Assembly (NCBI GenBank): GCA_018262985.1 | Contig: JADFDI010000010.1 | Span: 9,274 to 73,273, forward strand | DNA from: Spirochaetota bacterium | GTDB taxonomy: Bacteria > Spirochaetota > Spirochaetia > Treponematales > UBA12059 | Reading direction: 5' to 3' | Length of the DNA stretch: 64,000 bases | Shown: piece by piece, positions 7,142 to 49,342 of the stretch | Numbering within the stretch: position 1 is the first letter of the stretch | Layout: every line of letters begins with the position of its first letter | The notes under the pieces: model-generated | The model's input: only the letters and a program-made list of their open reading frames with translations | The model's database searches: none | What the model was told of the DNA's origin: nothing | Program-made: the position numbers and the translations under genes

Positions 7142-7837
7142 ATGGGAAACACGATGACCGCCAGCCTGGCGGAGGCCGCGCGGGACTACCGCTGGCTGCT
7201 CGACCGGGGCTACCCGGAACGCGGCTCGGCGACGCTGGTCGAGGACCGCCGCCGGCTCGACGCCGCCGAACGGCTGGCCCTCTATCGGGGCGTCAGCTCC
7301 GCCGCGGCCTCGCGATCACGCGCCGCGAAGCGCCTCGGCTCGATCGGGGGCCGCATCCTCGCGCTCGACGCCTACAACGCCCTGTTCCTCTGCGCCAACC
7401 GCCTTGCCGGGCATTTCATCCTGATCGCGGACGACGGCTTCGTGCGCGATGCCGGAGGCGCCCACGGCCGGGTTGCCGACCCGACCCGCTTCGCGCGCGC
7501 CGCGGAACTGGTGGCCGACGCGGTCGCGGCCGCCCGTCCCGCGCGCGTCATCGCCGCCTTCGACTCACCCGTGCCCCGTTCGGCGGAACACGCGCGCGCC
7601 TTCGCCGAGGCGTTGGCCGCGCGGGGCGTCGCGGCGGGGACAGAGCTCGCGAGGAGCGCCGATTTCGCCGTGAAAACCGCGTGCCTCCGGGACGGCGCCG
7701 TGGCCGGCACGGGCGACTCGGCCCTCGTCGACTCGGTCTCGGAGGCTTGGGACGCGGGCCGGGCCGCGCTGGAAGCCTTGGACGGCAGTCCGCCGCCGTA
7801 TGCCGACTTCGGGGTAGCGCTCGGCGCGGGAGCGTGA
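7142..7837 (+). CDS. hypothetical protein, DUF434-like N-terminus (tentative)
   Basis: N-terminal YRWLLDRGYPERGS resembles the DUF434 motif as I remember it. High GC3 in this frame. Contains one motif copy (7637). Confidence 0.4.
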   Translation: MGNTMTASLAEAARDYRWLLDRGYPERGSATLVEDRRRLDAAERLALYRGVSSAAASRSRAAKRLGSIGGRILALDAYNALFLCANRLAGHFILIADDGFVRDAGGAHGRVADPTRFARAAELVADAVAAARPARVIAAFDSPVPRSAEHARAFAEALAARGVAAGTELARSADFAVKTACLRDGAVAGTGDSALVDSVSEAWDAGRAALEALDGSPPPYADFGVALGAGA

Positions 7838-7884
7838 CCGCGGAGACACCGAGGCAAGAGGGAGAGCAGGATGGGGAAAAGGAA

Positions 7885-7910
7885 GCGCCCGCGGCGGGGG
7901 CCGCGGGCGC
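7885..7910. terminator. bidirectional GC hairpin between convergent genes
   Basis: Perfect 10-bp stem GCGCCCGCGG / CCGCGGGCGC with a 6-nt loop. T-containing tract downstream on + (cgtgttgt) and a T-rich tract on - (tccttttcccc). Confidence 0.5.
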
Positions 7911-8025
7911 CGTGTTGTACGTTGGAACTGTGACCTCCGTGGACGCATCGGTCGCGGCCGAACCGCATCGCGCCGCCGAAGTCACGCCCCCATCGGAGCG
8001 ATGGAAAGGGCCCGCGGCGAAACGC

Positions 8026-22644: not shown

Positions 22645-23448
22645 ATGAAGAGAGACAGCGCCACCGATCCCTTCGACCTCGCCGTCGAGACGGGCGAGAC
22701 GCCCTGGGCGCTCGAGACCAGGGGAATGAGCGTCGACTACGGCGCCTTCCGCGCCGTGAAGGACCTCACCATGGGCTTCGAGAAGCGGCGGGTCACGGCC
22801 ATCATCGGCCCTTCCGGCTGCGGCAAGAGCACCGCGCTCCGCGCCTTCAACCGCATGAACGACCTGATACCCGGCTGCCGGACGGAGGGGCAGGTGCTCT
22901 TCCACGGCGCCGACGTCTACGCGCCGGAAGTGGACCCGGTCAAGGTGCGGCGCTGGATCGGCATGGTCTTCCAGAAGCCGAACCCCTTCCCCAAGAGCGT
23001 CCGCGAGAACATCCTCTGGGGAGCCCGCATCAACGGGTACTCCGGCGACGAGGAGGAGCTCGTGGAGGGCTCGCTCCGCCAGGCCGCGCTCTGGGACGAG
23101 GTGAAGGACAAGCTCGACAAGTCCGCCCTCGCGCTTTCAGGCGGCCAGCAGCAGCGGCTGTGCATCGCGCGCGCCGTGGCGGTCAAGCCCGAGATCCTGC
23201 TCATGGACGAGCCGACGAGCGCCCTCGACCCGATCTCGACCTCGCGCATCGAGGACCTGCTCGAGGAGCTCAAGTCCCGCTACACCATCATCATCGTGAC
23301 GCACAACATGCAGCAGGCGGGCCGGGTCTCCGACCGCACGGCCTTCATGCTGCTCGGCGACCTCGTGGAGTACGCACCCACCAAGGAGCTCTTCCTGAAT
23401 CCGAAGGACGGGCGCACCGAGAACTACATATCCGGCCGCTTCGGCTGA
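22645..23448 (+). CDS. pstB: phosphate ABC transporter ATP-binding protein
   Basis: Walker [10 protein letters not shown], signature LSGGQQQRL, Walker [14 protein letters not shown]-loop VTHNMQQA. Confidence 0.95.
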
Positions 23449-23469
23449 GACCCCGGGGAGGGACAGAGC

Positions 23470-24129
23470 ATGCATTCGCGCATCCAGTTCATGGAGGAGC
23501 TTTCGCGCCTCCACCACGACATCCTGTCCATGGGGACCCGCGTCGGGGAAAACCTCGCCAAGGCGCTCGAGGCGCTCCGCTCCGGCGACGCCGAGCTCGC
23601 GGACGAAGCCCGGGCGGGCGACGGCGCCGTCGACGCCATGCAGGTGACCATCGAGGACCGCGCCGCCGTCCTCATCGCCACCCAGCAGCCGGTGGCCGGC
23701 GACCTCCGCGAGCTCGTGACGGTCTTCAAGCTGACCGAGCACCTGGAACGGATCGGCGACTACGCCTCGCACCTGGCGAAGGCGGCCAAACGGCTCGCGA
23801 AGGAGCCCTACCCGCGCTCGATCGAGCCGCTCGAGAGCATGGCCGAGCTCGAGATCTCGATGGTCCGCGACGCGGTCGCGGCCTTCCTGAACCGCGACGC
23901 GGAGCTCGCGCGCGCCTGCGCCGCGCGGGACGACGAGGTCGACGCGAGCCACAAGGCCTTCCTCGAGGAGGCGCTCGACTTCGTCCGCGAGAACCCGGAC
24001 AAAGCGCAGCAGGGCATGCGCCTCATCCGCGCCTCCGCCTGGCTCGAGCGCCTCGGCGACCACGTCACCAACATCTGCGAGGCGGTGGTGTTCATGGTCG
24101 AGGGGCGCCACGTGGAGCTGAACGAGTAG
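23470..24129 (+). CDS. phoU: phosphate signalling complex protein PhoU
   Basis: Two PhoU repeats (ERIGDYASHLAK and ERLGDHVTNICE). Located directly after pstB. Confidence 0.9.
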   Translation: MHSRIQFMEELSRLHHDILSMGTRVGENLAKALEALRSGDAELADEARAGDGAVDAMQVTIEDRAAVLIATQQPVAGDLRELVTVFKLTEHLERIGDYASHLAKAAKRLAKEPYPRSIEPLESMAELEISMVRDAVAAFLNRDAELARACAARDDEVDASHKAFLEEALDFVRENPDKAQQGMRLIRASAWLERLGDHVTNICEAVVFMVEGRHVELNE

Positions 24130-39317: not shown

Positions 39318-40943
39318 CTAGCGGATGTCGAAGTAGCGCCGTTCTATCGCGGCCACGCGGTCGGATGCGTCCTGCCACCAGGCGCTCTCGGGGAACTCGT
39401 CGCGAACGCGCTTGTAGGCCGCGTGCGCCTTGCGGATGTCTCGCAGGGGACCGGGTTCCTCGTAGACGCGGCCGAGCAGGTACCATGGCTCGTCGCCCGA
39501 GTTCGGATAGAGCGACACGAGACGTTCGAGGTTGCGGCGGGCGTTCTCGAAACGGCCGGCGGCCATTTCGTCGCGCGAGAAGCGCAGGAGGTCGGCATAG
39601 GAATCCGAAGCGGGCGAGATCGCCGCGGGGGTGGCGGAGACGGAAGCGGCAACCGGGCTCGCCGGAGCGGTCGCGGCGAAGGATCCGGTCGTCACGGTCG
39701 AAGGAGAGACAGCGATAGGGACAGAGCTCGCGGCGGGCGGGACGGAACCCGAGGCGGCGGGGGCTGCCGACGACGGGCTGAGCGCGGGCGGCGGGACGAC
39801 GGCAGAGGGGACAGAGCTCACGCCTGCCGTGGGAGCGGAGCCCGGCGTGGCGGCAACCGGGACAGAGCTCGCGTTGGATGCCGAGGGCGGTAGCGGAGGG
39901 ACAGAGCCCGCGCCGGCCGCGGGAGCACCGGACGCCATCGGGGGGACAGAGCTCGCGCTTGCGGCGACCGGCGAAGGCGACGAAACCCGGCTGCCCGTGA
40001 CGCTGCCCATGATGCCGGTACCGAGACCGCTCAAGGGAGCCCCGAGCGGCACCGCCGCGTCGGTCACCACGATGCGGGCGGTCTTCGACTCGGGCACGCC
40101 AAGCAGTGGATCGAGCCTGCGGAAGTCGAGGAGATAGTCGCCCGCGCGCTCGGCGCTCAGGGCGAATATGGCGTCTCCGTCCTGGAAGCGTCGATGCTCG
40201 TACGCGATGCCCTCCTGACCCGCCGACTCGCCGAGGTAGGTCCAGCCGGATCCGGAAACGCGAATCTCGAACCGGTCGCCCCGGCGAATCCCGAACTCGA
40301 GATCCGGGCCGCGGGAAAGAGACGAGGGATCGAGCACCTCGGGCGCACCCATGGGTATCACGGCGATCGAAGGAGCCGGAGCGGCGACCGGGGCCGGCGC
40401 GGGGCTCTCAACTGGTTTCGCGGGCACGGCGGGGCTGGCGGCCGGCGCCGCGACAGCCGACGCCGGCACGGCGGGTTTGGGAGTGGGAGGCGACGGGGCT
40501 GGAACGGCAGGTGCGGGCTTCGCCCCGGCGGGCGTTGTGGCCGTGAGAGACGGCGAGGGAGCTGGCGCAGGGGCCGGAGTCAGGCCGGGAAGAACCGGAG
40601 ACGTCGAACTCTCGGGGCTCGCCGCCGGGACGGCGGGAACCGGAGCGCCCGGCGCGGGTTTCGCGGCAGGAGCGGGCACGGGGGCGGCGGGTTCGTAAAG
40701 GGGAACGCCGATGGGCCCGACAGCCTGCGCGGGAGCGAGGTAGGTTACCGCCGGTCCGGGGTCGGGAACCCTTTCCTCAGGGGGTGTCCCGGAAGCGGGT
40801 TCGCCGGTGTTCGGCTCTTCCGCCGATTCCGCCAGGGCCGCAGCCTGCTCCGGAGCGGTCGCGCAGGATGCGAGGGCGACCGAGACGCCGAACGCGATCA
40901 ACGGCCAGATCCAGCGAATCCCAGCGTCTCCGCTTTTCGGCAT
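39318..40943 (-). CDS. lipoprotein with long Pro/Ala/Ser-rich linker and TPR/BamD-like C-terminal module
   Basis: Lipobox VSVALASC. Low-complexity linker contains 5-6 motif-derived (S/G)SVP units. C-terminus FENARRNLERLVSLYPNSGDEPWYLLGRVYE is TPR-like. Confidence 0.6.
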   Translation of the reverse strand: MPKSGDAGIRWIWPLIAFGVSVALASCATAPEQAAALAESAEEPNTGEPASGTPPEERVPDPGPAVTYLAPAQAVGPIGVPLYEPAAPVPAPAAKPAPGAPVPAVPAASPESSTSPVLPGLTPAPAPAPSPSLTATTPAGAKPAPAVPAPSPPTPKPAVPASAVAAPAASPAVPAKPVESPAPAPVAAPAPSIAVIPMGAPEVLDPSSLSRGPDLEFGIRRGDRFEIRVSGSGWTYLGESAGQEGIAYEHRRFQDGDAIFALSAERAGDYLLDFRRLDPLLGVPESKTARIVVTDAAVPLGAPLSGLGTGIMGSVTGSRVSSPSPVAASASSVPPMASGAPAAGAGSVPPLPPSASNASSVPVAATPGSAPTAGVSSVPSAVVPPPALSPSSAAPAASGSVPPAASSVPIAVSPSTVTTGSFAATAPASPVAASVSATPAAISPASDSYADLLRFSRDEMAAGRFENARRNLERLVSLYPNSGDEPWYLLGRVYEEPGPLRDIRKAHAAYKRVRDEFPESAWWQDASDRVAAIERRYFDIR

Positions 40944-40948
40944 ACCGT

Positions 40949-41521
40949 CTACTCCAGACCGTCCAGCATCGTATCAACCTTTTCGCGCACGCGCGACTCG
41001 ATATCCCGAGTATCGACCCATTCCAGGTCCGGCATGAGGAGGAGGAGATCCTCATCGGAGAAGACGGATCGACGGGGACGGTCGAGCGGAAACACGGCGG
41101 CGTCCGGCATGGGTTCAGGCGGTTCGAGGCGACCTGCCAGTTCGAGCCAACGCCGTTCGGGCGGCGGCGGCGCCTCTACGGGCTTTGGCGGTCGGGCGGC
41201 GACCGCGAAGGCCACGAAGAGCGCCAGCACGAGCGCCAGGAAGACGGCAAGGCCGAAGACGAGTCCGGGTCGGTCCTTGAGGCCGACCACTCCTTCCTTG
41301 AGAAGCTCGGAGGGCTTCACGCGGGCGCTCTTGAGCGCGTCCGCGGCGACGTGGGCCGCGTCGTCGTCGAAACCAAGGGCGGAGACGGCCGCGTCGTCGT
41401 CATTGGCCGGAGGCGGCGCTTTCGCGTCCTTCGAGAAGCGGGCGCGGGCTTCCTTCACGATCCGTCCCGCCGCCGCGAAAAGCTTCGCCGGTCCCGTTCC
41501 GGAAGACGCCTTGCCGGTCAT
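40949..41521 (-). CDS. hypothetical single-pass membrane protein
   Basis: Central TM helix GLVFGLAVFLALVLALFVAFAVAA. Starts immediately after the smc stop (41522). Confidence 0.45.
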   Translation of the reverse strand: MTGKASSGTGPAKLFAAAGRIVKEARARFSKDAKAPPPANDDDAAVSALGFDDDAAHVAADALKSARVKPSELLKEGVVGLKDRPGLVFGLAVFLALVLALFVAFAVAARPPKPVEAPPPPERRWLELAGRLEPPEPMPDAAVFPLDRPRRSVFSDEDLLLLMPDLEWVDTRDIESRVREKVDTMLDGLE

Positions 41522-44500
41522 CTAGCTCTGTCCCTCTCCGCCGACGGGACCGTCGCCATCACCGGTACCGGCGGTCTCCGAGCTCTGTCCCTCTCCGCCG
41601 GTTCCGGCATCGTCCGGGATCGGGGCGTCAACGGGGTCGCGGAAGGCGCCATCCTCGATGCCGGGGGCGGAGGATGCGTCGTCAAGGCCGAGCGAGAGCT
41701 CGCGGCCGTCCTCCCAGGGCACCTCCTCCTCGTCCTCCATGGCCACGATGGGCTTGGGCGGGACGATCGGGGCGCCGTCGGAGCGCTCGAGGCGCATGGC
41801 GATGGCCTTGGTGACGCCGGATTCCTCCATGGTCACGCCGAGCAGGGCGTCGGCGCCGGTCACCGTCTTCTTGTTGTGCGTGATGACGATGAACTGGCTC
41901 ATGCGGCCGAATTCTCGGAGCAGCGTGACGAAGCGCACCACGTTCTGCTCGTCGAGGGCGGCGTCGATCTCGTCGAGGAAGCAGAAGGGCGAGGGCTTGA
42001 CCATGTAGGTCGCGAAGAGGAGGCCGATGGCGGTCATCGACTTCTCGCCGCCGGAGAGCAGGCTGATCGCCTCGAGGCGCTTCCCCGGAGGCTGGGCGTA
42101 GATCTCGATGCCCGACTCGAGGACGTGGTCCGGGTCGACCATGCGGAGCTCGCCCCGGCCGCCGCCGAAGAGCCTTCGGAAGAGGTTGTGGAAGTTCTTC
42201 TTGATCTTGTTGTAGGTCTCGAGGAAGAGCTCGGCGCTCTCGGCGCGGATCTCGGCCGTGATGCGCTTCAGGTCCTCGCGCGCCTTCTCGAGGTCCGCGA
42301 GCTGGGTCGAGAGGAAGTCGTAGCGCTCCTTGACCTCGGCGTACTCCTCGACGGCCATGAGGTTGACCGAGCCGAGGTCCTTGAGCTTCGAGCGCGCGGC
42401 GGCGAGCTTCTCGCGGAGGTCAGCCATCGGCGCGCGAAGCTCGTACATGCGCTCCTCGAACTCCACGAGCTCGCGCGAGTACTGCTCGCGGAAGTTGTCC
42501 TTGACGTTGCGGATCTCGGTCTCGACCTGCGCGAGGCCCATGTGGAGCCGCTCGAGCTCGGACTGCACCTGGCCGAGCTTCTCCATCTTCTTCCTGAGCT
42601 CGCCCTGGCGGTTCGAGAGCTCGGAGTTGCGGAGCGCGATGTCCTTCTCGAGCTTCTCGAGCGCCGCGGTCAGTTCCCGTCCCTTCTTCTCGATCTCGGC
42701 GATCTCCTCGTCGAGGTCGGAAAGGCGCTCCTCCGCCTCGGCGTGGCGCTTCTCCTCGAGCCAGGCCTCGTTCTCGAGTTCGCGGAGCATGGCCTCCTGC
42801 GCGGCCACCTCGCGGCGGAGCAGGGCGAGGCTCTCCTCGGCGGCCTGGGCCTGGGTCTGGATGCGGATGCGGTTGCCGCGGAGCTCCTCGAGGGTCTTGC
42901 GGTACTCGTCGACCTTGAGCGCGAGCTCGCGGTTCTCCTCGCGGCGGCGCGCCATATCCGCGCGGCGCGAGGCGACGCCCTCGGCGATCTTCCGGATGCG
43001 CTCGTCGGCGCTCCGCTTCTTGGTGATGATGCCTTCGGGCGAGAGGAACTCGTCGAGGAAGGCCGGGCTCGTGGCCTTGTAGCGGGCGAAGCGCTCGCGG
43101 AGCTCGAGGCTTTGCGCGGCGGTCTCGTCGAGGGCCGCGCGGGCGCGGCGCAGCAGTTCCCTCGCGGAGTCCGAACCCACGTCGCGGAGCTTCTCGAGGT
43201 CGTCGAAGAGGGCGGCGCGGCCCTCGAGCCGGGCCACGATGCCGGCCACGAGCGCGTCGATGGCCTCCTCGGCCGCGCGGCGCTCCTGGGCGGAATAGCC
43301 GGTCTCCTTGAGGCGGGCGTCGAGCTCGGCGACGATGTCCTCGGTGATGGCGTCCAGCTCTCGCTGGGCCTCGCCGCGTTCGAGGTCAAGCTTGAGGATC
43401 TCCGCCTCGGCCTTGACGACGGCGGCCTCGTTGTCCTTGATGCGGCCGTCGGCGACGGCGATGTTCTCCTCGAACGAGGCGACGTTGCGGTCGATCTCGG
43501 CGAGGCGCCCCTTGACGGAACGGAGCTCGCCCTCCTTCTCGTCGACGTCCTCGCGCAAGCCCTCGAGCCGTTCGGAAACGCCCTTGGCCCGGAGCCGCGC
43601 CTGGTCCGCCTTGGCCTTGGCCTCGGCGACGCGCTCCACCAGGAGCTTCCGCTCCTTTTCCTTGCCGGCGCGCTCGACGGCGAGGCCGTACACGGTCTTC
43701 TGGTGCTCGACGAGCGTAGCCTCCATCGAGTTGACCACGTCGAGGCTCTCCTCGAGGGTCTGGTTGATGGCGTCTATCTCGCCCTTCACCTTGTCGCGCT
43801 CGCGGGTGCGGTGACCGACTTCCTCGTCGCGGCGCGCCTTCTCGTCGACGAACTGGCGCAGCTTGAGGAGGTGGAGGTCGAGCTCGGACTCGAAGACCTG
43901 GTCGCGCAAGGCCCGGTAGGCGAGCGTCTTGTCGGCCTGGACCTTGAGGGTGTCGTGGCTGCGCTTGACCTCGCCGAGGATGCCCTGCACCTGGCGCAGG
44001 TTCTCCTCGGTGCGCGCGAGCTTCTGCTCGGCTTCCTTCGAGCGCACCTTGTGCTTGGTGATGCCGGCCGCCTCCTCGAAGAGGTAGCGGCGTTCCTCCG
44101 GCTTCGAGGAGAGGATCTGGTCGATGCGGCCCTGCTCCATGACGGAGTAGGCGCTCTTGCCGATGCCCGTGTCCCAGAAGAGCTCGCGGATCTCCTTGAG
44201 CTTGGCCTGAGTCCCGTTGAGCAGGTACTCGCTCTCTCCGGAGCGGTAGAGGCGGCGCTTGATCTGGACCTCGGGCAGGTCGATGGGAAGCCGGCCCGTC
44301 TCGTTGGAGATGGTGAGCGTGACCTCGGCCACCGATAGGGCTTTGCGCGTCTCGGTGCCGTTGAAGATGATGTCTTCCATGCTCTCGGCGCGGAGGCTGC
44401 GGGCCGACTGCTCGCCGACCACCCACTTGATGGCGTCGACGACGTTGGACTTGCCGCAGCCGTTCGGGCCGAGCAGGGCGGAGATGCCGTCGGCGAACTC

Positions 44501-44560
44501 GATGCGGGTCCGGTCGGCGAAGCTTTTGAAGCCGAAAATTTCGAGGCTTTTCAGGAACAC
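41522..44560 (-). CDS. smc: chromosome partition protein Smc
   Basis: GTG start. Walker A GPNGCGKSN, long coiled coils, hinge, signature LSGGEKS, Walker B FCFLDEIDAALD. Acidic C-terminal extension of about 95 aa. Confidence 0.95.
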   Translation of the reverse strand: MFLKSLEIFGFKSFADRTRIEFADGISALLGPNGCGKSNVVDAIKWVVGEQSARSLRAESMEDIIFNGTETRKALSVAEVTLTISNETGRLPIDLPEVQIKRRLYRSGESEYLLNGTQAKLKEIRELFWDTGIGKSAYSVMEQGRIDQILSSKPEERRYLFEEAAGITKHKVRSKEAEQKLARTEENLRQVQGILGEVKRSHDTLKVQADKTLAYRALRDQVFESELDLHLLKLRQFVDEKARRDEEVGHRTRERDKVKGEIDAINQTLEESLDVVNSMEATLVEHQKTVYGLAVERAGKEKERKLLVERVAEAKAKADQARLRAKGVSERLEGLREDVDEKEGELRSVKGRLAEIDRNVASFEENIAVADGRIKDNEAAVVKAEAEILKLDLERGEAQRELDAITEDIVAELDARLKETGYSAQERRAAEEAIDALVAGIVARLEGRAALFDDLEKLRDVGSDSARELLRRARAALDETAAQSLELRERFARYKATSPAFLDEFLSPEGIITKKRSADERIRKIAEGVASRRADMARRREENRELALKVDEYRKTLEELRGNRIRIQTQAQAAEESLALLRREVAAQEAMLRELENEAWLEEKRHAEAEERLSDLDEEIAEIEKKGRELTAALEKLEKDIALRNSELSNRQGELRKKMEKLGQVQSELERLHMGLAQVETEIRNVKDNFREQYSRELVEFEERMYELRAPMADLREKLAAARSKLKDLGSVNLMAVEEYAEVKERYDFLSTQLADLEKAREDLKRITAEIRAESAELFLETYNKIKKNFHNLFRRLFGGGRGELRMVDPDHVLESGIEIYAQPPGKRLEAISLLSGGEKSMTAIGLLFATYMVKPSPFCFLDEIDAALDEQNVVRFVTLLREFGRMSQFIVITHNKKTVTGADALLGVTMEESGVTKAIAMRLERSDGAPIVPPKPIVAMEDEEEVPWEDGRELSLGLDDASSAPGIEDGAFRDPVDAPIPDDAGTGGEGQSSETAGTGDGDGPVGGEGQS

Positions 44561-44733
44561 GGGTCACCCTCGGGGACAGAGCTCTGCGGGAAGGGCGCAT
44601 CCTAGCACGCCGCCCCCCGCCCCCGCAAGACCGAGGCTAAAGCCTTATATCAAAAAGAGAACCGCGGAGGCTCGGAGGCGCCGGAGGCCACGGCCTCGAA
44701 GTCGGCCGTCGCCGGTTTCGAGGCCGGGCGCGC

Positions 44734-46863
44734 TCAGTCGGCCAGGCAGCGGTCGCGGCCCGAGGCCTTGGCGGCGTAGAGCCGCCTGTCGGCGAGCGCC
44801 ACCATCGCCTCGACCGAGAAGCCCTCGCGTTCGAATTCCGCGCTGTCGGCCACGCCGCCGCTGAACGTCATGCGGATCGCGCGGCCTTCGAAGTCGAGGG
44901 CCAGCGCCCGCGCCGCGCCCATTATGCGTTCGAGCATGACGATGACCTCGCCCTTTCGGGCGCTTGGCGAGACGATGAGGAATTCCTCGCCGCCGTAGCG
45001 TCCGAGCAATTCGTAGGGACGTATCGACGAGGCGAGCAAGGCCGCGAAATTCCTGAGCACCAGGTCGCCCGCCTGGTGGCCGAACGTATCGTTGATGGCC
45101 TTGAAGCGGTCGATGTCTAGGATCGAGACGCAGAAATTCCTCTCGCGCCGCACGTACTCGGCGCCGATCGCCTCGAGGCGCTCGAAGAGGTGGCGGCGGT
45201 TGTAGGCTCCCGTGAGCGGATCGCGGACCGCGAGCTCGCGGATGCGCTCCTCCATGAGCTTTTTCTCGGTGATGTCGGAGTGGGTGCCGTACATCTTGAG
45301 CGGCCTGCCCTCCGCGTCGCGCTCCACCACCCGCCCGCGGTCGAGCACCCAGACCCACGAGCCGTCGCGGTGACGCATGCGGCTCTCGTGCTCGTAGTAC
45401 GGCGCGCGCCCCTCGAAGTGCTCGGCGAGGAGCCGATCCGACTCCGCGAGGTCGTCGGGGTGCGCGAGCGCTTCCCAGGTGCCGATGCTCGTCGGCGAAA
45501 GCTCGGCGAGCGAATAGCCCAGCATTTCCGCCCAGCGTTCGTCGAACACCGTCTCGCCGGTCCGCACGTTCCACTCCCAGGTACCGAGCCGCGTGCCTTC
45601 GATGACGTTGGCGAGGCGCTTCCGCTCGACCTCGAGCGCCTCGCGCAGGGTCACGGTCTCGGTGACGTCGACCATCACCGTAAGCAGGAATCGCCGGCCT
45701 TGCGTCTCGATGAGCTCGCCGGAGAAGAGCCCGTGGATGAGCGCGCCGTCCTTGCGGCGCAGCTCGAGCTCGCGGTTCCGGACGCGCCCCCCGGCCTCGA
45801 GCTCCCCGACCGCGCCGCGCCAGCGGCGGCCGTCGACGAAGAGCCGGAGCTCGGGGCTCCGCACGCCGATCACCTCGCGCCGCTCGTAGCCCAAGACGCG
45901 GAGGAAGGCCTCGTTGACGTCGACGAAGCGGTGGTCGGGGACAGAGCTCACCGCCATCGCCGCGGGATTGCCGTGGAAGAGCCGCTCGAATTTCTGGAGG
46001 GCGGCCTGCTCGGCGCTGAGGTCCTTCGACACGCCGAAGATGGCGGGGCGCCCGTCCCACTGGCCGAACCAGACCCGCGTCTCGACGGGCACCCGGCTGC
46101 CGTCGCGGGCGCCGAGCTCGAGGGGACAGCGGTCCAGCTCGCGCCGGAACATGGCGTCGAGGATGCAGGCCGCCTCGTCGCGCTTGTCGGCCGGGTGCAG
46201 CTCGATGATGGGCAAGCCCACGAAGTCCCCGCGCGCGTAGCCCAGGCGGCGGCACGCGGCCTCGTTCGCGTAGACCACGCGGCCCTCCGTGTCGCCCACC
46301 ACGATGATGTCGTCCACCGTCTCGAAGAAGGTCCGGAAATTCGCCTCGGAGACGGCGATCCGGTCGCCGAGCAACTTCTTGGCGTACGCCGTCGAGACGA
46401 TGCCGGAGATGGTCCGCAACGTCTCGATCTCCGTCGAGGTCCACGCCCGATGGCCGCAGCATTCGTCGAAGCCGAGGAAGCCCCGCACGCCGCCTTCGAC
46501 CAGGAGGGGCGCGAAGACGATGGCGCTGATGCCCTGCGCTTCGAGCACGCCGCGGACGTCGTCAGGCAAGGTGCCGACATCCTCGACCGGGTAGACCACC
46601 TTCCGGTCCAGGATGGCCTTCCAGCTGGGAATGGAAGCGTAGGGGATGTCCTTCAGGTTGTCGATCTCGGGCTCGACCCCCTCGGCGCACCACTCGTGGG
46701 TGTTGGAGGTGGTTTCTCCGTCGTCGGAATCGAGGAACAGGTAGCAGCGGGAAACGCCGAGGCGCGAGCCCATGAGCGCGAGGCTGCGGTTCACCTGAAC
46801 GTCGAAGCCGTCGCCCGTGACGAAGATGAGGGCTATCTCGGAGATGGTCCCGGATTCCAGCAT
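44734..46863 (-). CDS. GAF-PAS-PAS-PAS-GGDEF diguanylate cyclase
   Basis: N-terminal GAF-like domain, three PAS-like repeats, and a C-terminal GGDEF domain with RYGGEEF and DRFKAINDTFGH. Confidence 0.9.
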   Translation of the reverse strand: MLESGTISEIALIFVTGDGFDVQVNRSLALMGSRLGVSRCYLFLDSDDGETTSNTHEWCAEGVEPEIDNLKDIPYASIPSWKAILDRKVVYPVEDVGTLPDDVRGVLEAQGISAIVFAPLLVEGGVRGFLGFDECCGHRAWTSTEIETLRTISGIVSTAYAKKLLGDRIAVSEANFRTFFETVDDIIVVGDTEGRVVYANEAACRRLGYARGDFVGLPIIELHPADKRDEAACILDAMFRRELDRCPLELGARDGSRVPVETRVWFGQWDGRPAIFGVSKDLSAEQAALQKFERLFHGNPAAMAVSSVPDHRFVDVNEAFLRVLGYERREVIGVRSPELRLFVDGRRWRGAVGELEAGGRVRNRELELRRKDGALIHGLFSGELIETQGRRFLLTVMVDVTETVTLREALEVERKRLANVIEGTRLGTWEWNVRTGETVFDERWAEMLGYSLAELSPTSIGTWEALAHPDDLAESDRLLAEHFEGRAPYYEHESRMRHRDGSWVWVLDRGRVVERDAEGRPLKMYGTHSDITEKKLMEERIRELAVRDPLTGAYNRRHLFERLEAIGAEYVRRERNFCVSILDIDRFKAINDTFGHQAGDLVLRNFAALLASSIRPYELLGRYGGEEFLIVSPSARKGEVIVMLERIMGAARALALDFEGRAIRMTFSGGVADSAEFEREGFSVEAMVALADRRLYAAKASGRDRCLAD

Positions 46864-48537: not shown

Positions 48538-48732
48538 GGGACAGAGCTCACAGGGCAACAAGCGAGTCCCCCCCATAGGGACAGAGCTCAGAGATGGCAA
48601 CAACGGAATCAAAGGGACAGAGCTTCCGGCAACAACGAGAGCAGGGACAGAGCTTCCGGCAACAACGAGAGCAGGGACAGAGCTCTCATGAAGGAACGAC
48701 TCGGTTCCAGGGACGTTTTGGGGACAGAGCTT
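48538..48732 (+). repeat. array of six GGGACAGAGCT(C/T) copies immediately upstream of the RAYT-like gene
   Basis: Copies at 48538, 48578, 48614(v), 48644(v), 48674, 48721(v). The 30-nt unit ggcaacaacgagagcagggacagagcttcc occurs twice. catagggacagagctca occurs twice. Confidence 0.95.
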
Positions 48733-48793: not shown

Positions 48794-49342
48794 ATGCACA
48801 AACCACGCTTGCTGAGGGATGGCGCCTTGTACCACGTCACCGCGCGCGCAAACCGCCAGGAGCTCGTGATGAAGGGGGCCGCCATGAAAGCGCTCTTCAT
48901 CCGTACGCTCCGCCGCGCGAGGAAACGGTACGATTTCCGTCTCGAGAACTTCTGCGTCATGGGAAACCATTTCCACCTCATGATCCGCCCCGGCCCGAAC
49001 GAAAGCCTCTCGCGGATCATGCAGTGGATCATGAGCGTCTACGCCATGGCCTGGAACCGTCGCCATCGGCTGACCGGTCACCTTTGGGGCGATCGGTTTT
49101 TCTCGCGAATCATCGAAGGCCTCAAAACCTTCCTCGAAGTGTTCAAGTATCTCGACGACAATCCGGTGAGCGCCGGGCAGGTATCGAATCCGCGCGAGTG
49201 GCGCTTCGGAGGGCTCTGGCGCCAACGTACCGGGTTCCCGGATCCCGGCGAGCCGCCATCCTCGCACGTGGCGCTGCTCTTCCCGGAACACGTAAAACTC
49301 GCGTTGCCCGCGCCCGTCACGACTTTCGATTCAACGTCGTGA
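48794..49342 (+). CDS. IS200/IS605-type Y1 (HUH) transposase homolog, RAYT-like
   Basis: LYHVTARANRQE, CVMGNHFHLMI (HUH), WNRRHRLTGHLWGDRFFS, YLDDNPVSAG are colinear with the Y1_Tnp / REP-associated tyrosine transposase family. Single gene with no tnpB. GC lower than surroundings. Confidence 0.75.
   Translation: MHKPRLLRDGALYHVTARANRQELVMKGAAMKALFIRTLRRARKRYDFRLENFCVMGNHFHLMIRPGPNESLSRIMQWIMSVYAMAWNRRHRLTGHLWGDRFFSRIIEGLKTFLEVFKYLDDNPVSAGQVSNPREWRFGGLWRQRTGFPDPGEPPSSHVALLFPEHVKLALPAPVTTFDSTS

Follow-up and report, generated by a model that had tools for sequence, protein, structure and literature searches.

The smc gene described here ends within a copy of a 12-nt repeat that recurs throughout the surrounding DNA, which raises the question of what a repeat family has had to do with the end of an essential protein. 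The first-pass annotation read the C-terminal tail of Smc as repeat-derived and took the protein to end where one base had changed in a copy of the motif. The gene itself presents little difficulty. Within the window (the whole 64-kb stretch of DNA analysed), smc occupies positions 41522 to 44560 of the minus strand, with a GTG start and a TAG stop at 41522-41524, and its open reading frame translates to 1012 aa. The Pfam SMC_N domain spans residues 2-917 (E = 8.7e-73), and the score against NCBIfam TIGR02168 (SMC_prok_B) is 835.6 bits, above the curated equivalog cut-off of 567.35. The head motifs GPNGCGKS (Walker A), LSGGEKS (signature) and FLDEIDAALD (Walker B) can be read in the translation and are invariant in a 40-sequence alignment. 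The protein falls about 170 aa below the length of the TIGR02168 profile, its best NCBIfam stretch ends at profile position 497 of 1181, and no SMC_hinge match was found in Pfam at E <= 0.001; the AlphaFold2 (AF2) model has no more than a short break, around residues 497-511.

The repeat is abundant around this gene. The 12-mer GGGACAGAGCTC occurs in 37 exact copies in 64 kb, and its 9-nt core in 50; exact copies are absent from 590 kb of unrelated genomes, a background made up of search matches through universal P-loop patterns of the Smc alignment and drawn mostly from unrelated phyla. On a crude gene map, 36 of the 50 cores are intergenic, nine lie in called genes and five in a lipoprotein open reading frame that the map missed. 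All six frames of the 12-mer are free of stops, and it reads GTEL, GQS or SSVP depending on the gene; there is no preferred reading frame in genes. Only the inner GAGCTC is palindromic, and neither GTAG nor CGTC occurs in GGGACAGAGCTC or its complement. An IS200-like Y1 (HUH) nuclease gene (48794-49342, plus strand; Pfam Y1_Tnp, E = 2.7e-15) lies 7 kb from the smc tail, with a six-copy motif array (48538-48730) directly upstream. The 12-mer is hyper-abundant in this genus and linked to an IS200-like Y1 nuclease gene.

Two blocks of this kind lie at the end of smc. Exact copies of the 20-mer AGCTCTGTCCCTCTCCGCCG lie at 41524-41543 and at 41581-41600, both within the last 27 codons of smc, 57 nt apart and in frame, and each reads GGEGQS. 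Allowing up to three mismatches, the window holds a single further site, with three mismatches; shuffled sequences gave a mean of 0.02 matches, and none of 100 shuffles reached three. The internal copy (41572-41600, minus strand) carries an exact 12-mer at 41580-41591 (plus strand GAGCTCTGTCCC) in the block 41581-41600 and reads GGEGQS-S-E-T. The terminal copy (41515-41543, minus strand) carries an 11/12 match at 41523-41534 (plus strand TAGCTCTGTCCC) in the block 41524-41543 and reads GGEGQS-stop, the C-terminus of Smc being GGEGQSSETAGTGDGDGPVGGEGQS. The codon after the block is TCG at the internal copy versus TAG, the smc stop, at the terminal one, and the single mismatch of the terminal copy to the 12-mer is the middle base of that stop codon. 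The first-pass description is accurate on all these points: the paired blocks and their spacing, the TCG and TAG codons that follow, the stop that overlaps an 11/12 copy, and the incorporation of both copies into coding sequence, where each is read as GEGQS. Similarity between the copies in fact extends to 29 nt at 90% (41515-43 versus 41572-600) and, at the terminal copy, runs beyond the stop into the ATG of the next gene, spanning the TAG-ATG junction and the purine-rich GGAGAGGGA.

Short repeats in a metagenome-assembled genome might be collapsed or joined chimerically, so that the pair of blocks would be an artefact of assembly or binning. Three more assemblies (L136, L161, L162) carry the same two-copy sequence, as do contigs assembled from eight metagenome runs that come from eight studies, and there is no indel or joint at 41500-41620, which leaves an artefact with a negligible probability. 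Two copies are present in 13 of 13 independent assemblies or runs, a contig-based count in which rare copy-number variants would not show; likewise, no 57-nt indel at the tail repeat appears in the assembled contigs of the eight runs. A metagenome scan with the 17-mer CGGAGAGGGACAGAGCT returned 77 loci, among which only L119 and L136 were smc junctions, the rest being chance matches in other organisms.

The tail in which the blocks sit is not itself made of the repeat. Its length is 95 aa when counted from the end of the SMC_N match and 87 aa from ...AMRLE; it has a net charge of -18 and a composition that is 76% D/E/G/P/S/T/A. The proximal part is a conserved acidic module at about residues 926-958 (RSDGAPIVPPKPIVAMEDEEEVPWEDGRELSLG; 41687-41785, minus strand). 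The pattern [DE]3[VI]x[YFWI]ExGx[ED] (EEEVEYEEGxELPP-like) is found in 115 of 120 relatives, all 120 of which have a post-head tail, of 32-174 aa; Treponema Smc has a comparable module, seen in the same search matches that supplied the background above. The distal part (residues 962-1012; 41525-41677, minus strand) is hypervariable and rich in G/D/A/S/P/E, and is unalignable or full of indels between lineages whose smc bodies are 93-96% identical in nucleotide sequence. More distant relatives (L163-L166) have tails of 43-107 aa, yet not one motif core in 30 kb around smc. Their tails come close to an observation that the first-pass annotation had itself named as evidence against its reading, and the term repeat-derived has to be given up: only two blocks of 12-20 nt in the 285-nt tail derive from the motif.

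The distal tail is probably disordered and of low complexity. The AF2 model gives it no secondary structure and a pLDDT of about 30, which is weak support for disorder, the full-length model having a mean pLDDT of 66 and falling below 50 in head and tail alike. We envisage an old C-terminal extension in the Smc of a Rectinemataceae-like clade, consisting of the acidic module followed by a fast-evolving acidic tail, of which the distal part would tolerate in-frame change. Smc lengths of 1005, 1012, 1013 and 1031 aa among the lineages reflect differing parts of unrelated sequence, and the notion that tail length varies in repeat units does not stand, there being no 57-nt indel in the eight runs either. 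The 19-aa gap between 1031 and 1012 aa looks like a repeat unit by coincidence only, the additional residues being unrelated. A simple 57-nt tandem duplication was likewise rejected, as only the 20-29-nt block matches at period 57 and the remainder is at background, even though the event is younger than about 4% divergence. The distal tail is like other low-complexity disordered tails, which evolve by in-frame slippage or duplication, in being hypervariable in length and composition; unlike them, its blocks are not a whole-unit tandem duplication. The neighbouring lipoprotein gene likewise resembles such tails, having a 51-nt in-frame unit that is present or absent between strains.

The terminal copy belongs to a gene junction. 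Directly after the smc stop comes the ATG of a 190-aa gene (40949-41521, minus strand), whose product has one hydrophobic segment and no Pfam or NCBIfam match. The gene and its stop-start adjacency are kept in L001-L003, L161 and L164, and it is tightly linked to smc in the other distant relatives (a 2-nt gap in L163, a 4-nt overlap in L165 and a 15-nt gap in L166). The purine-rich GGAGAGGGA lies at -18 to -10 relative to the ATG and could be a Shine-Dalgarno site of the 190-aa gene, at a GAGGG-ATG spacing of 10 nt, which is above optimal. The last Smc codons, GGA GAG GGA CAG AGC, would then double as its ribosome-binding region. Translational coupling with a Shine-Dalgarno site in the last codons of the upstream gene is a general feature of bacterial operons, and the smc pair resembles it in its TAGATG adjacency, its purine-rich GGAGAGGGA and the tight junctions of relatives. 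It differs in that a genome-wide repeat has one of its copies where the putative ribosome-binding region, read from the sequence, lies. Elsewhere in the window, a second motif copy adjoins a start codon in the same relative position, GGGGAGGGACAGAGC-ATG, before a phoU-like gene at 23470.

Had perfect copies come to lie at the 3' end of smc, one of them later turning into TAG by a G-to-T change (plus strand), the repeat would indeed have set the end of Smc. Such a history would leave what is seen at the terminal copy, agreement with the motif at all but the middle base of the stop (11 of 12 positions), and REP elements are known to contribute TAG stops through their termini (PMC3733652). The distribution among relatives points the other way. 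The stretch GGAGAGGGACAGAGC followed by TAG and ATG is common to three species-level lineages with otherwise differing tails, and GGAGAGGGACAGAGCTAGATG is identical in the window, L161, L001, L002 and L119. Every one of the five lineages in the genus, L003 included, has TAG and ATG adjoining at the start of the 190-aa gene, and so does the distant L164. The terminal site of L003 reads GGAGAAGGGCGGGAC-TAG, of equal length, with five transitions and no motif. C is precluded as the 12th base of the terminal copy, since the stop codon takes up that position. The polarity of the terminal site relative to L003 is ambiguous, which leaves the mutational history some room, because L003 groups with L001 in the Smc protein tree (support 88/85), a tree that roots the genus ambiguously; what L003 carries may have decayed from a motif copy and need not be ancestral.

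The perfect internal copy is found in the window, L161, L162, L136, P0124, P0127 and P0129, which represent one species; it is confined to a lineage 99.3% identical to the window and is absent from L001 (95.6% nucleotide identity), L002 (94.0%) and L003 (93.3%). The stop-codon copy is older than the internal copy, as it is common to three lineages and the latter to one species only, and the event that gave rise to the internal copy is younger than about 4% divergence. Being the younger, single-species copy, the perfect copy against which the stop was compared cannot be its unmutated ancestor, and the direction implied by the first-pass annotation is reversed. Mutation of a perfect copy into the stop is therefore quite improbable. 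The 11/12 copy, with its TAG-ATG arrangement, was in place before at least three species-level lineages diverged, and the internal copy arose later, in one species.

How it arose is suggested by the corresponding site in L002, which reads GGC GGG GAC GGG GTG GAG TCC GAT ACG (GGDGVESDT) where the window has GGC GGA GAG GGA CAG AGC TCG GAG ACC; the two are of equal length and match at 16 of 27 bases. One possibility is that a 12-mer arrived there independently through the family's own spreading, for instance by the Y1 nuclease, without involvement of the terminal block. The family is very active, numbering 50 cores in 64 kb and forming arrays in many spacers, and a Y1_Tnp gene with its own array lies close by. 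A 12-nt insertion is neutral to the frame, and L002 already has the flank GGCGGNGA, part of the sequence common to both copies, at the internal site. What such an arrival leaves out of account is that identity between the copies extends 8-9 nt past the 12-mer (TCTCCGCCG), a flank found at no other copy in the window, that seven of 11 further bases match past the stop, and that two extra substitutions relative to L002 also run towards the sequence of the terminal copy. Independent arrival is unlikely on these grounds, if still worth keeping in mind.

Replacement of GGDGVESDT at equal length suggests instead a short-patch conversion from the terminal copy. The most likely route would be a short templated patch, by intragenic gene conversion or as a copied stretch of about 20-29 nt, laid on a similar pre-existing G-G-D-G-x-E-S-D-T segment 57 nt upstream with no change in length; the patch would have ended before the TAG and ATG, or else these were lost from it. 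We consider it probable, with room for doubt, that an old tail acquired its terminal copy across the stop early and that the internal patch was copied later from the terminal block.

The copies might alternatively be kept for a function, whether of the GGEGQS peptide or of RNA or DNA sites that regulate smc or couple it to the next gene. A further copy lies in the smc leader (44573-44584, minus strand), 13 nt upstream of the GTG; it runs in the opposite orientation, as an exact complement of the tail copies, and in L001, L002 and L003 it recurs at this position inside about 90 nt that do not vary. The leader and terminal copies are thus both conserved across species. The tail copies are bracketed by inverted repeats scoring 9 and 10, a score of 10 being reached at 2.3% of control positions, but such stems are no feature of the 12-mer family, whose copies are no better bracketed than random positions (mean 6.3 versus 6.4 for controls). 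The idea that the motif belongs in a stem loop was dropped on that account, the Smc copies being well bracketed and the family overall not. The RNA fold at the junction has a z of -2.0 but is weak, seven of 200 shuffles folding as well, and the absence of strain SNPs from the blocks (0 of 3) has P of about 0.1. The motif is read in other frames in other genes, and the internal copy is missing from sister species with an otherwise near-identical Smc. Retention for function is very unlikely in light of these points, and the repeat is probably neutral at the protein level.

Comparable situations are known. Open reading frames that flank REPs often owe their TAG stop to the end of the repeat, and REPs also occur inside open reading frames, many of them DNA replication or repair genes and sometimes with two per frame; C-terminal copies are probably harmless (Di Nocera, De Gregorio and Rocco 2013, PMC3733652). 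Like these elements, the 12-mer is short, high in copy number, mainly extragenic and linked to a Y1 transposase gene. That said, REPs are 20-40-nt palindromic hairpin units with a GTAG/CGTC tag, whereas the 12-mer has 12 nt, no hairpin and no tag, and REPs donate the stop, whereas the smc stop seems fixed by the gene junction instead. Rickettsia palindromic elements (RPE) are inserted in frame into genes (reviewed in PMC10969869), and like the Smc copies are selfish repeats translated within housekeeping proteins without destroying them. They differ in being palindromic, about 100-150 bp long and with a conserved peptide; a 12-mer copy contributes four codons, in varying frames, here to a low-complexity tail. 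REP-type repeats that supply TAG stops or lie within open reading frames are already described, and the smc case is an ordinary overlap of a repeat with a gene end.

A broader and frankly speculative extension, with a slim chance of being right, is that the 12-mer spreads by length-preserving templated patch conversion onto similar sequence and that GGGACAGAGC with a start codon has been co-opted as a Shine-Dalgarno-plus-spacer module. The motif and non-motif orthologous pairs at smc (L003 versus the others at the stop, L002 versus the window at the internal site) are both colinear and of equal length, which would favour patch conversion over insertion. Examples of GGGACAGAGC with a start codon are the junction of smc with the 190-aa gene and the phoU-like start at 23470. 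If this were true, a selfish repeat family would shape protein tails and translation initiation sites.

Wider interest attaches to two things beyond the finding: the acidic C-terminal module conserved in spirochaete Smc, and a non-palindromic 12-mer family with a Y1 nuclease gene. The finding corrects the tempting story of a repeat that defines the end of Smc, and offers in its place an example of a genome-wide repeat absorbed harmlessly into an essential gene, at a hypervariable low-complexity tail and a gene junction.

The smc gene occupies 41522-44560 on the minus strand, begins with GTG and encodes a protein of 1012 aa that is recognized by both Pfam SMC_N (residues 2-917, E = 8.7e-73) and NCBIfam TIGR02168 (836 bits; cut-off 567). 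The 95 residues past the SMC_N match carry a net charge of -18, consist to 76% of D/E/G/P/S/T/A, and end in DDAGTGGEGQSSETAGTGDGDGPVGGEGQS. On the plus strand, the sequence AGCTCTGTCCCTCTCCGCCG is found at 41524-41543 and again at 41581-41600, a start-to-start distance of 57 nt, and both blocks are translated from the minus strand in one frame as G-G-E-G-Q-S. The similarity reaches 29 nt at 90% identity (41515-41543 versus 41572-41600). In dinucleotide-preserving shuffles, matches to the block with up to three mismatches average 0.02. The internal block is followed by TCG GAG ACC and the terminal block by TAG ATG ACC, in which TAG is the smc stop and ATG the start of an adjoining 190-aa ORF. 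The descriptive claims of the first-pass annotation (two blocks, 57-nt spacing, common frame, GGEGQS, TCG versus TAG, acidic tail) all hold. Its interpretation survives in part: motif copies are indeed incorporated into coding sequence and translated, and the smc stop overlaps one of them, but the tail is not repeat-derived and the direction of change is reversed.

Each block contains a copy of a 12-mer, GGGACAGAGCTC (complement GAGCTCTGTCCC), of which the 64-kb window holds 37 exact copies, along with 50 occurrences of its 9-nt core. By comparison, smc loci of unrelated bacteria, 590 kb in total, contain no exact copy, and the core three times. Copies lie on both strands, frequently in arrays with 13-, 16-, 21-, 26- or 30-nt spacing, and the majority are intergenic according to a crude GC3-based gene map. 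The few copies within ORFs are read in differing frames, as GTEL, GQS or, in a neighbouring lipoprotein gene, SSVP. All six frames of the 12-mer are free of stop codons, and since it is also 12 nt long, it is neutral for reading frame and ORF integrity. The motif forms no hairpin, with bracketing inverted repeats averaging 6.3 around copies and 6.4 at random positions. A six-copy array lies directly ahead of an IS200-like Y1 nuclease gene (48794-49342; Pfam Y1_Tnp, E = 2.7e-15).

Extended tails are general among the relatives retrieved by a search with Smc residues 800-1012, which are labeled Rectinemataceae, Spirochaetia or Spirochaetales. Each of the 120 proteins listed extends beyond the head motif GVTMEESGVT, by 32-174 aa (median 75), and 115 of them carry an acidic module of the EEEVEYEEGxELPP type. 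In the window this module reads EDEEEVPWEDGRELSLG (41687-41785, residues ~926-958); a comparable one is found in Treponema Smc (FVDEDVPDEEGVVIPPRP). A possible role of the module is to dock a partner protein. Distal to the module follow sequences of low complexity that are unrelated between relatives and have a high content of Ala, Pro, Glu, Asp and Gly. DNA was also compared for four relatives at greater distance (L163-L166, encoding P0002, P0006, P0010 and P0036): their Smc tails measure 43-107 aa, and the motif core is absent from the 30 kb around smc in all four, so the tail as such is unrelated to the 12-mer. The proposal of a repeat-derived tail had named a tail in genomes lacking the motif as the observation that would speak against it, and this is nearly what these loci present, over the 30 kb compared.

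An AF2 model of Smc (mean pLDDT 66, with values below 50 in head and tail alike) hints weakly that the tail may be disordered. Smc has no Pfam SMC_hinge match, falls ~170 aa short of the TIGR02168 profile length, and has its best NCBIfam stretch end at profile position 497. In the AF2 model the coiled coil is interrupted only briefly, at residues ~497-511 (SPAFLDEFLSPEGIITKKR; ~43030-43075). The hinge may be minimal or highly divergent, a trait common to the whole clade (proteins of 960-1045 aa).

The relative age of the two copies emerges from the proteins that cluster with the window's Smc at 90% identity and represent several lineages. Over the first 955 smc codons, nucleotide identity to the window is 99.3% for L161 and L162 (P0121), 95.6% for L001 (P0125), 94.0% for L002 (P0126) and 93.3% for L003 (P0123). 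The window-type tail end, GGEGQSSET[AD]GTGDGDGP[VA]GGEGQS, is also found in P0121, P0124, P0127, P0129 and L136, and the tails of L001, L002 and L003 end in TGTEPREADIGSDGNDEDDDSADGEGQS, EAGGDGVESDTTDDADGEGQS and RDEGDPVESGGEGRD, respectively. The junction GGA GAG GGA CAG AGC TAG ATG is the same in the window, L161, L001, L002 and a further locus, L119. The stop-bearing copy is common to at least three species-level lineages and the perfect internal copy is limited to one species, so the latter cannot be the unmutated model of the former; the order implied by the first-pass annotation, a perfect copy mutated into a stop, is reversed.

In L003 the junction reads GGA GAA GGG CGG GAC TAG ATG, which differs by five transitions at equal length, and TAG, ATG and the following (G/A)CCGGCAAG are invariant in five lineages. 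Together with the distant L164, where the junction is GAC GGA TAG ATG, the L003 sequence suggests that the stop was in place before the motif reached the junction. However, the L003 junction could instead be a decayed motif copy, because the Smc protein tree joins L003 to L001 (support 88/85); nucleotide distances instead group the window with L001.

The internal copy arose after the split from L001, at ~4% nucleotide divergence. A tandem duplication of the whole 57-nt unit followed by decay is excluded: in a period-57 comparison the 20-nt block and 7 of the next 11 bases match, and the other ~28 nt are at background despite divergence of less than ~4%. The internal site reads GCC GGC GGG GAC GGG GTG GAG TCC GAT ACG in L002 and ACC GGC GGA GAG GGA CAG AGC TCG GAG ACC in the window (G-G-D-G-V-E-S-D-T and G-G-E-G-Q-S-S-E-T); from GGC the two are colinear and of equal length, with 16 of 27 bases matching in the tail alignment. 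The site therefore existed beforehand and already resembled the terminal segment; L001 is likewise alignable there. In the window's species ~20 nt of this site were then overwritten with the sequence of the terminal block. The flank TCTCCGCCG is common to both smc copies and accompanies none of the window's other motif copies. Most simply, the terminal copy would have supplied a short templated patch, through gene conversion within smc or a short copying event. The main alternative is independent arrival of the 12-mer beside a pre-existing GGCGGNGA.

The two-copy form appears stable. Contigs from eight metagenome runs, drawn from as many studies of bioreactor, wastewater, sludge, anaerobic digester and soil material, were compared over 41300-42100, and those runs with contigs spanning both blocks have the two-copy form, the remainder covering the repeat region partly. 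No indel or joint occurs at 41500-41620 in these contigs, which hide rare variants and may thus conceal low-frequency slippage, and the sole differences are inter-block SNPs at 41544, 41567 and 41571. Variation of the Smc tail in repeat units, raised in the first-pass annotation, was thus not seen there; it does hold for the adjacent lipoprotein gene (39318-40943, minus strand). At 39700-39760 the window has one 51-nt in-frame motif-bearing unit, and L161 and L162 have two in tandem (7822-7923), the units being identical at ~45 of 51 positions. Within one species, then, the copy number of a coding unit with the motif does vary.

The 190-aa ORF (40949-41521, minus strand), whose ATG abuts the smc stop, follows smc in all relatives examined (182-209 aa; junctions of 0, +2, -4 or +15 nt). 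Its product has a single hydrophobic segment and matches no Pfam or NCBIfam family. A gene for a TPR-like protein (435-541 aa) comes next, and the three look like a conserved unit. Within the last smc codons, at -18 to -10 from the ATG, GGAGAGGGA is a plausible candidate for the Shine-Dalgarno region of the 190-aa gene. Several distant relatives likewise close Smc with purine-rich codons of the GG[DE] type or have GGAGG just ahead of the next start. Elsewhere in the window (23446-23472), GGGGAGGGACAGAGC, a 10/12 motif copy, lies directly ahead of a phoU-like gene whose ATG is at 23470, placed as putative Shine-Dalgarno and spacer in the layout of the smc junction. The local RNA fold of the smc junction is only slightly better than shuffles (z = -2.0).

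Upstream of smc, ~90 nt of leader (44561-44650, minus strand) are invariant in four genus members, in the order promoter-like TTGCGG-18 nt-TAGGAT (the -10 element preceded by TGC), motif copy, GAGGG and GTG. The motif copy (44573-44584) lies in opposite orientation 13 nt upstream of the GTG and is complementary to the tail copies; this complementarity is ascribed to motif abundance and is not counted as evidence for long-range RNA pairing. Between an aminotransferase gene and smc, the window, L161 and L162 have a 709-aa GAF/PAS/GGDEF gene (44734-46863). L001, L002, L003 and L166 lack it at this position, which makes it a lineage-specific insertion beside smc.

Repeats that enter genes in this way have precedents. 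REP termini often supply flanking ORFs with their TAG stop (Di Nocera et al. 2013, PMC3733652), and REPs also lie within ORFs, many of them DNA replication or repair genes, at times two per ORF, with function probably unaffected by C-terminal copies (PMC3733652); the classic in-frame case is that of the Rickettsia palindromic elements (PMC10969869). Like REPs, the 12-mer overlaps ORF ends and lies in ORFs, but it lacks two of their defining features, having neither a palindrome nor a GTAG or CGTC tag. The smc case is a fresh instance of a known phenomenon, the repeat within an ORF or at its stop, and its mechanism is not new.
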